From the NCBI RefSeq assembly GCF_044324875.1, contig NZ_CP172185.1: a DNA stretch of 64,000 nucleotides, one strand, 5' to 3'. The translations under genes and the position numbers were made by a program. This document shows, piece by piece, positions 9,694-11,378 of the stretch. The notes under the pieces are model-generated. The model ran no database searches and had not been told where the DNA came from. It was given only the letters and a program-made list of their open reading frames with translations. The DNA comes from Escherichia coli. Its GTDB lineage: Bacteria > Pseudomonadota > Gammaproteobacteria > Enterobacterales > Enterobacteriaceae. Each line of letters begins with the position of its first letter. The first letter of the stretch is position 1.

Positions 9694-11064
9694 ATGGCTC
9701 GTTCTTTTAAAGTCTTATCGCCAACGGCAATCCTCGGGTATGGATTCCCGGAAGAGAGCTTCCGTAAAGCGATGGCAGAATCGCCCGATCTGATCGCCGT
9801 TGATGCAGGCTCTTCCGATCCAGGCCCCCACTACCTCGGGGCAGGCAAACCGTTTACCGATCGCGCAGGGGTCAAGCGCGATCTGCGCTATATGATCACC
9901 GCAGGCGTGCAAAATAATATACCGGTGGTGATCGGAACGGCTGGCGGTTCTGGTGCCGCACCACACCTGGAGTGGTGCCGAGAAATAATTCATGAGATTG
10001 CCCGGGAAGAGCAACTCGCGTTCTCGATGGCGCTGATCCCGGCAGACGTTGACAAAGCCATCGTCCACCAGGCGCTGGATAACGGCAAAATCACGGCGCT
10101 GGATTTTGTCCCGCCGTTAACCCACGACGCGATTGACGAAAGTACGTATATCGTCGCGCAAATGGGCATCGAACCCTTCCAGCGGGCGCTGAAAGAAGGC
10201 GCGCAAGTGGTGCTGGGCGGGCGCGCTTACGACCCGGCCTGCTTTGCTGCGCTACCGATCATGCAAGGCTTTGATGAAGGTCTGGCGCTGCATTGTGGGA
10301 AAATCCTTGAATGCGCGGCAATCGCCGCAACGCCCGGCTCAGGCTCTGACTGTGCGATGGGCATCATTGATGACAACGGCTTTACGCTGAAGACATTTAA
10401 TCCGAAGCGTAAATTTACCGAAACGTCAGCGGCTGCACACACACTGTATGAGAAATCCGATCCCTACTTCCTGCCTGGACCTGGCGGCGTGTTGAACCTG
10501 AAAGGCTGCACATTTAAAGCGGTCAATGACGGCGAAGTGTACGTCAGCGGTTCTAAGTATGAAGAAACGCCGTATTCCCTGAAACTGGAAGGTGCGCGAC
10601 GGGTGGGCTTCCGCTGTCTGACCATCGCAGGAACGCGCGACCCGATCATGATCGCCGGGATCGATAAAATCATTGATGAAGTCAAAACCAGCGTTTCGCG
10701 TAACCTGTCGCTCGACGATGACAGTATTCACATCAATTTCCACCTGTACGGCAAAAACGGGGTGATGGGCGACCATGAACCGATGCAAACTGCCGGGCAT
10801 GAGCTGGGGATTGTCCTTGATGTAGTTGCACCGACCCAGGAAATTGCCAATAGCGTTTGCTCGCTGGTGCGCTCTACCATGCTGCACTACGGCTATGAAA
10901 ACCGCATCGCTACCGCAGGTAATCTGGCGTTCCCGTTCTCCCCTTCTGATATCCAGGGCGGGCCGGTATACGAATTTTCCATATATCACCTGATTGAAGC
11001 CAACGACGCTCTGCGTTTTGATTTCCATATTGAACAGGTGACGCCAGAAGGAGTTCAGGCATGA
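9694..11064 (+). CDS. conserved protein of unknown function, AtuA-like (DUF1446-type) by recollection
   Basis: 456-aa ORF starting 4 nt after the methylaspartase stop; family assignment is from memory and needs a profile search. Confidence 0.5.
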   Translation: MARSFKVLSPTAILGYGFPEESFRKAMAESPDLIAVDAGSSDPGPHYLGAGKPFTDRAGVKRDLRYMITAGVQNNIPVVIGTAGGSGAAPHLEWCREIIHEIAREEQLAFSMALIPADVDKAIVHQALDNGKITALDFVPPLTHDAIDESTYIVAQMGIEPFQRALKEGAQVVLGGRAYDPACFAALPIMQGFDEGLALHCGKILECAAIAATPGSGSDCAMGIIDDNGFTLKTFNPKRKFTETSAAAHTLYEKSDPYFLPGPGGVLNLKGCTFKAVNDGEVYVSGSKYEETPYSLKLEGARRVGFRCLTIAGTRDPIMIAGIDKIIDEVKTSVSRNLSLDDDSIHINFHLYGKNGVMGDHEPMQTAGHELGIVLDVVAPTQEIANSVCSLVRSTMLHYGYENRIATAGNLAFPFSPSDIQGGPVYEFSIYHLIEANDALRFDFHIEQVTPEGVQA

Positions 11065-11378
11065 AACAGTCAATTGTCTCACTGGCGCAAGTCATTCGTT
11101 CGAAAAATGCCGGACCTTACGAACTGGTTTTAGATATTTTATTTAAAACCAAAGAAAACTATGAGCGAGTTAAATCATCAGGGCAATTAACCCCAGAACT
11201 GATTGCGCGCTTATATCATGTTGAACCTGACTTTATTCATCGTATTGTCTGGTTTGATCCTTCTAACGCAGTAAAAATCGTCATGCCACGAGATATTATC
11301 TCCGGGAATGTAGGTGACAATGATGTCTATGGTGCACAGCAACATGCACCTTTATTAAATATGAGTTTCGATTTGTAA
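11061..11378 (+). CDS. small conserved protein, 105 aa, probable partner of the AtuA-like protein (DUF4387-type by recollection)
   Basis: Start overlaps the stop of the preceding ORF (ATGA), indicating translational coupling. Confidence 0.45.
   Translation: MKQSIVSLAQVIRSKNAGPYELVLDILFKTKENYERVKSSGQLTPELIARLYHVEPDFIHRIVWFDPSNAVKIVMPRDIISGNVGDNDVYGAQQHAPLLNMSFDL

Follow-up and report, generated by a model that had tools for sequence, protein, structure and literature searches.

CmlAB, a probable citramalate lyase of a non-classical type, in the methylaspartate operon of Escherichia coli

In the methylaspartate pathway, glutamate is converted to 3-methylaspartate, mesaconate, and (S)-citramalate, which the last enzyme, citramalate lyase, splits into pyruvate and acetate (PMC4682846). 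Clostridia carry out this last step with a CitDEF-like complex that is encoded in the cluster (PMC4682846, PMC8473912). Kronen and Berg studied exactly this cluster in enterobacteria in 2015, and FumD of E. coli O157:H7 was characterized biochemically as a mesaconase; citramalate lyase activity could not be attributed to citrate lyase, isocitrate lyase, or methylisocitrate lyase, and the authors wrote that "the fate of citramalate is still unclear" (PMC4682846). The same operon lies in the 64-kb stretch of E. coli DNA analyzed here (the window), where two genes, cmlA and cmlB, directly follow the gene for methylaspartase. Which reaction do they serve? An earlier note, made by reading the DNA, took the two genes to be co-expressed with those for glutamate mutase and methylaspartase, which we count as right. 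Its premise, a canonical pathway without a step for them, was wrong, because the pathway ends with citramalate lyase (PMC4682846, PMC8473912). Since a lyase of the CitDEF type is absent from the operon, the pair fills a recognized hole and adds no new step to the pathway.

Organization of the operon and the gene pair

The operon and the elements at its 3' end are arranged as follows.

5145-5597, plus strand: glmS, glutamate (methylaspartate) mutase, B12-dependent (NCBIfam equivalog NF002612)
5597-6985, plus strand: glmL, mutase accessory protein (NCBIfam equivalogs TIGR01319 and NF040745)
7004-8449, plus strand: glmE, glutamate mutase, B12-dependent (NCBIfam equivalog TIGR01503)
8449-9690, plus strand: mal, methylaspartate ammonia-lyase, immediately 5' of cmlA (TIGR01502, E = 2e-163)
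9694-11064, plus strand: cmlA, 456 amino acids, ATG start; large subunit of the probable citramalate lyase, AtuA family
11061-11378, plus strand: cmlB, 105 amino acids, ATG start; small subunit, DUF4387, translationally coupled to cmlA
11518-12819, plus strand: gltP-like, dicarboxylate/amino acid:cation symporter (RefSeq name), presumed glutamate importer
12927-14579, plus strand: fumD, class I fumarate hydratase, a mesaconase making (S)-citramalate (NF011921, 1279 bits)
14589-15191, plus strand: cobA/cobO, cob(I)yrinic acid a,c-diamide adenosyltransferase (TIGR00708)
15195-15221: terminator-like hairpin 3' of cobA (11-bp stem with 9 G-C pairs), the only strong one of the operon
15225-16130, minus strand: divergent gene for a LysR-family regulator (LysR/GcvA-type matches), putative regulator of the cluster

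NCBIfam assignments reveal that the operon encodes all other steps of the methylaspartate pathway, namely GlmS, GlmL, and GlmE, Mal, and the FumD mesaconase. The NCBIfam DctA/GltP matches of the symporter fall under the equivalog cut-off; the symporter of the enterobacterial cluster has been named GltP (PMC4682846). A tblastn search with E. coli K-12 CitCDEFXG gave no match in the window (E <= 1e-3), and profile annotation together with this search found no candidate lyase in the operon besides CmlAB. A scan of the sequence from glmS to cobA found no convincing internal terminator. Promoter-like sites in the operon scan were rarer than in shuffled sequence, which makes the scan uninformative on internal promoters.

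The cluster lies on the E. coli chromosome, with cydA on one side (779-2350, minus strand) and sucDCBA on the other (16796-22958, minus strand), and the adjoining LysR gene is kept in enterobacterial loci. Two open reading frames between cydA and glmS (3153-4097 and 4178-4600, plus strand; 314 and 140 amino acids) have a G+C content of 0.37-0.38, match no NCBIfam model, and are called hypothetical by RefSeq in E. coli LR-28; they resemble foreign DNA at the edge of an island. The content of this island differs by strain. In the window, sucD comes immediately after the LysR gene (15225-16796), whereas E. coli LR-28 (locus L081, 14532-19685) carries a histidine-utilization set after the LysR gene, comprising a HAL/PAL-type ammonia-lyase, hutG, hutI, and a HutD-family gene, that would yield glutamate.

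Both the list of open reading frames and the sequence itself confirmed the pair of 456 and 105 codons that the earlier note had described. The mal stop codon (TAA, 9688-9690) is separated from the cmlA ATG at 9694 by 3 nucleotides (CAA) rather than by the 4 originally given, a trivial error; the 4-nucleotide overlap it reported between cmlA and cmlB is correct, as the cmlA stop codon (TGA, 11062-11064) and the cmlB start codon (ATG, 11061-11063) share ATGA at 11061-11064. Each start codon has a Shine-Dalgarno-like sequence 7 nucleotides upstream (AAGGA at 9682-9686 for cmlA, GAAGGAG at 11047-11053 for cmlB). Both genes are intact, and comparison with orthologues from Klebsiella and Salmonella revealed strong purifying selection on each, with dN/dS ratios of 0.04-0.05 for cmlA and 0.05-0.07 for cmlB. 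At 38%, the G+C content of cmlB is lower than that of cmlA, which it overlaps (55%), and of the remaining operon (49-54%); the range for cmlB orthologues from Klebsiella, Salmonella, and Escherichia sp. is 44-50%.

A Pfam scan, one of the checks proposed at the outset, bore out the family assignment that the earlier note had made: CmlA matches AtuA (PF07287), albeit distantly (E = 6.4e-19, 68 bits, residues 63-394 only), and CmlB matches DUF4387 (PF14330; E = 2.9e-39). Neither protein is matched by any NCBIfam model. In RefSeq, CmlA is listed as "acyclic terpene utilization AtuA family protein" and CmlB as "DUF4387 domain-containing protein".

Identity of the pair

A sequence search of the PDB provided a more specific identification. 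CmlA matches chain A of entries 9ERQ and 9EVF over its full length (E = 1.5e-290, 91.4% identity), and residues 1-104 of CmlB match chain B of both (E = 5.2e-57). The depositors name these chains "Citramalate lyase, subunit A (cmlA)" and "subunit B (cmlB)". The title of entry 9ERQ, released on 2025-10-22, reads "Citramalate lyase - AMPPNP - citramalate complex", and that of entry 9EVF, released on 2025-10-08, "Citramalate lyase - ADP - pyruvate complex". The CmlA protein of a Klebsiella michiganensis locus is 100% identical to 9ERQ chain A, and the genes of this locus (L001) are arranged as in the window; CmlB is about 85% identical to its Klebsiella orthologue. Citramalate had been among the substrates suggested in the earlier note, rightly so in view of the name that the depositors gave to these 91%-identical proteins. 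Its other suggested substrate, mesaconate, finds no support, as the two structures hold citramalate and pyruvate.

Evidence from living cells comes from the cmlAB genes of Raoultella planticola, which in vivo bring about the cleavage of citramalate to pyruvate and acetate (bioRxiv 10.64898/2026.01.16.699985). An acetyl-CoA auxotroph that carries cmlAB shows growth dependent on mesaconate with the help of host fumarase, and curing of the plasmid abolishes growth; evolved strains up-regulate Acs and use "mesaconate-derived acetate" (bioRxiv 10.64898/2026.01.16.699985). This up-regulation of Acs favors free acetate as the product.

Cleavage of (S)-citramalate is known for the Raoultella/Klebsiella enzyme only, from the ligands in the PDB entries and from its use in vivo. 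The E. coli pair has in common with that enzyme the two-gene layout, subunit lengths of 456 and 105 amino acids, and the position after mal in the operon. The predicted fold of the window protein superposes on 9ERQ and 9EVF. Of the 456 residues of CmlA, 39 differ from 9ERQ chain A, none of them at columns invariant in the CmlA clade; the window protein keeps every column that is invariant in 24 clade members. The locus shows three features of the CmlAB type: full-length homology to CmlA, an adjoining CmlB with DUF4387, and a glmSLE-mal and mesaconase cluster that has no CitDEF lyase. We consider it very probable that cmlAB encodes the citramalate lyase of E. coli, an enzyme non-homologous to the CitDEF type that catalyzes the final step of the methylaspartate pathway, and we propose a mechanism for it below. 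The earlier note expected its reading to fall if the pair were assigned to an unrelated, well-characterized enzyme; this has come about insofar as the step is now assigned, to citramalate lyase.

The function of the pair is already known through the public PDB entries and the 2026 preprint. Since the structures were released in October 2025, the assignment holds nothing new for specialists; the value that remains lies in annotation, because databases keep the old names. Our literature search found no primary paper on CmlAB, and the only relevant sources were PMC4682846 and that one preprint.

The classical citramalate and citrate lyases (EC 4.1.3.22 and 4.1.3.6; Clostridium tetanomorphum), composed of the acyl carrier protein CitD, CitE, and CitF and accompanied by CitC, CitX, and CitG, perform the same net reaction as CmlAB. 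The acyl carrier subunit of the classical lyase carries a prosthetic group derived from CoA. CmlAB has neither an acyl-carrier subunit nor genes for prosthetic-group biosynthesis, and it binds a nucleotide, whereas the classical enzyme uses thioester chemistry. Both types act at the end of the methylaspartate pathway, where the classical lyase converts (S)-citramalate to acetate and pyruvate (PMC4682846, PMC8473912). By tblastn in the window and in 80 related loci, CmlAB shows no sequence relationship to CitDEF and does not belong to that type.

Fold, conserved residues, and the role of ATP

CmlA is predicted to consist of an alpha/beta N-terminal domain (residues ~1-295) followed by a ferredoxin-like C-terminal domain. 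A fold search with the whole chain retrieved no solved CmlA-like structure besides 9ERQ and 9EVF; the other matches were the ferredoxin-like dimerization domains of M20 peptidases, which align with the C-terminal domain of CmlA only. When the model of the N-terminal domain was searched alone, the top structural neighbors other than CmlA itself were weak, and all had the amino-acid-kinase fold: isopentenyl phosphate kinase (score 7.3), N-acetylglutamate kinase (6.9), UMP kinase (6.4), aspartokinase (6.3), and carbamate kinase (5.6). Enzymes with this fold move the gamma-phosphate of ATP onto carboxylate or phosphate groups, a chemistry that matches the AMPPNP and ADP ligands of the CmlAB crystals.

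Alignment of 110 relatives (32-61% identity) revealed conserved residues that include D42, G44, G87, R177, D180, E206, E253, and E299. By their conservation, these residues are candidates for a common catalytic or nucleotide site. Another set, H200, K203, C207, H249, and K254, is invariant within the CmlA clade only and may set substrate specificity.

Retro-aldol cleavage of free citramalate requires an acetate dianion as the leaving group, a difficulty for which classical lyases use a thioester instead. In the scheme that we propose, the GltP-like symporter would import glutamate, which GlmS and GlmE, with GlmL and CobA, would convert to 3-methylaspartate. Mal would deaminate 3-methylaspartate to mesaconate, FumD would hydrate mesaconate to (S)-citramalate, and CmlAB would split (S)-citramalate into pyruvate and acetate. 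ATP probably activates the carboxylate of citramalate as an acyl phosphate, which would make cleavage between C2 and C3 feasible without a thioester; the phosphoryl group would then return to ADP or be released, so that pyruvate and acetate are the net products. CmlB would be an obligatory partner domain, as suggested by relatives, fungal ones among them, in which it is fused to the large subunit. The trapping of citramalate with a non-hydrolyzable ATP analogue and the resemblance to kinases suggest that ATP phosphorylates the carboxylate of citramalate, and the kinase-like fold of the N-terminal domain fits a nucleotide-dependent cleavage, possibly through an acyl phosphate. We lean modestly toward a chemical role for ATP in CmlAB. 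It is possible that the nucleotide site lies on the ferredoxin/PII-like C-terminal domain and is regulatory instead.

The same nucleotides and the same weak likeness of the N-terminal domain to carboxylate kinases could be taken to mean that the pair is a kinase or activator of citramalate (or mesaconate) only, with cleavage left to another enzyme or with acetyl phosphate released and ATP regained by acetate kinase. We regard this as improbable. The depositors named the protein a lyase and crystallized it with the cleavage product pyruvate, cmlAB alone with host fumarase provides mesaconate-dependent growth (bioRxiv 10.64898/2026.01.16.699985), the response of Acs in the evolved strains speaks for free acetate and against acetyl phosphate, and the operon holds no further candidate for a lyase.

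Returning to CmlAB as the lyase itself, one may speculate further, although on balance we lean slightly against the idea, that ATP is a recycled catalytic cofactor and no regulator, that the kinase-like domain of CmlA forms an acyl phosphate that replaces the thioester in stabilizing the acetate-enolate leaving group before the phosphoryl group goes back to ADP, and that the whole AtuA/DUF4387 family consists of phosphoryl-activated C-C lyases. If so, the substrates of the family would be 3-hydroxy-3-substituted acids, that of AtuA in terpene catabolism included, and a Walker-A protein encoded next to cmlB in most non-enterobacterial lineages (described below) would be a third component that is absent in E. 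coli. The part that concerns the recycled cofactor is probably already known to the depositors of 9ERQ and 9EVF.

Distribution of CmlAB and its place in the AtuA/DUF4387 family

A scan of one genome per species identified at least 583 relatives, and the best 80 loci (57-91% identity) were analyzed for neighbors by tblastn with the operon proteins of the window. These 80 loci span Enterobacterales, Betaproteobacteria, Riflebacteria, Aminicenantes/Acidobacteriota, Spirochaetes, and Lentisphaerae as well as Bacillota, Chloroflexi, Planctomycetes, Myxococcota, and Desulfobacterota, more than ten phyla in all. The cmlB gene lies directly 3' of cmlA in 79 of them, the exception being a truncated contig. 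Co-occurrence with the pathway, a further check proposed in the earlier note, was borne out: mal lies directly 5' of cmlA in 71 of the 80 best loci. Of the same loci, 64 contain glmE, 56 glmS, and 56 glmL, with contig ends accounting for many of the misses, and a FumD-like hydratase is present in 37. Homologues of E. coli K-12 CitCDEFXG were found by tblastn in none of the 80 (E <= 1e-5). Their absence from these loci and from the window agrees with the classical lyase having undergone non-orthologous displacement. Among 5426 complete E. coli genomes, 1125 (about a fifth, O157:H7 included) have the pair at 95-99% identity, and 1117 of these 1125 genomes have at least 80% of the whole 10-kb operon.

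The tight linkage to mal could also be read as a sign that the pair assists or maintains glutamate mutase or methylaspartase; the earlier note had raised an accessory role with respect to the mutase. Several public records do, wrongly, name CmlA homologues "3-methylaspartate ammonia-lyase" (P0002, P0060, and P0077), a name that is still propagating and that Kronen and Berg had flagged as unexplained in 2015 (PMC4682846). We find this reading unsupported and very unlikely: the true methylaspartase (TIGR01502) and GlmL are encoded separately upstream, the structures contain citramalate and pyruvate rather than methylaspartate or B12, and orphan cmlAB pairs occur with neither mal nor glm genes nearby. 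True orphans (57-67% identity, no mal or glm within 10 kb) were found in Accumulibacter (L029), three Shewanella (L061, L072, and L076), and Desulfospira (L064). The genes around them (hrpA, a metalloprotease, a histidine kinase, malQ) are unrelated and offer no alternative context. These orphan pairs hint that citramalate cleavage, or its reverse, is used outside glutamate fermentation. Distant paralogues were uninformative in this respect, one being an orphan pair (P0125) and another a fungal fused gene (P0147).

That the large protein is a genuine AtuA of acyclic terpene (citronellol/geraniol) catabolism, as its Pfam match and RefSeq product name would have it, is scarcely credible given how distant and partial that match is, the lack of atu/liu genes (carboxylase, acyl-CoA dehydrogenase, hydratase) in the neighborhood, and a methylaspartate-pathway context in more than ten phyla. 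To our knowledge, the biochemical role of Pseudomonas AtuA itself has never been established.

CmlAB shares its Pfam families and the family-wide conserved residues with the wider AtuA/DUF1446 and DUF4387 family, which comprises 2394 clusters at 50% identity (E <= 1e-3) that range from bacteria to fungi. The CmlA clade is 35-50% identical to other AtuA subfamilies and is set apart from them by its clade-specific invariant residues. The context of Pseudomonas AtuA is terpene catabolism, whereas that of CmlA is glutamate fermentation, and the E. coli locus does not belong to the atu type of cluster. DUF4387 occurs in the wider family either as a separate partner or as a fused C-terminal domain; in two AtuA-type proteins of about 610 amino acids, it occupies residues 503-604 (P0147, which is fungal) and 509-609 (P0167). 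Such fusions support a physical complex between the A and B subunits.

In 34 of the 80 best loci, the gene directly 3' of cmlB encodes a protein of about 315 amino acids with the Walker-A motif GAEGSGKST (for example L054:7575-8519, L033:11694-12647, and L038:11689-12636). In 4 further loci, this gene lies elsewhere in the glm-mal-cml cluster. All carriers are outside Enterobacterales, and the gene is absent from the window. Sequence searches of Pfam, NCBIfam, and the PDB gave no assignment for the protein; it resembles ABC ATPases only weakly, in their N-terminal part. It may act either as a third lyase component or as a chaperone for B12 or the mutase.

As the very probable citramalate lyase of this operon, the pair closes the one step of the methylaspartate pathway that was still open in Enterobacteria. 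It can now be annotated, whereas RefSeq, Pfam, and NCBIfam keep the names "AtuA family" and "DUF4387". CmlAB also offers a thioester-free tool for synthetic pathways (bioRxiv 10.64898/2026.01.16.699985), and through it a large protein family that lacks an assigned function gains its first functional anchor.
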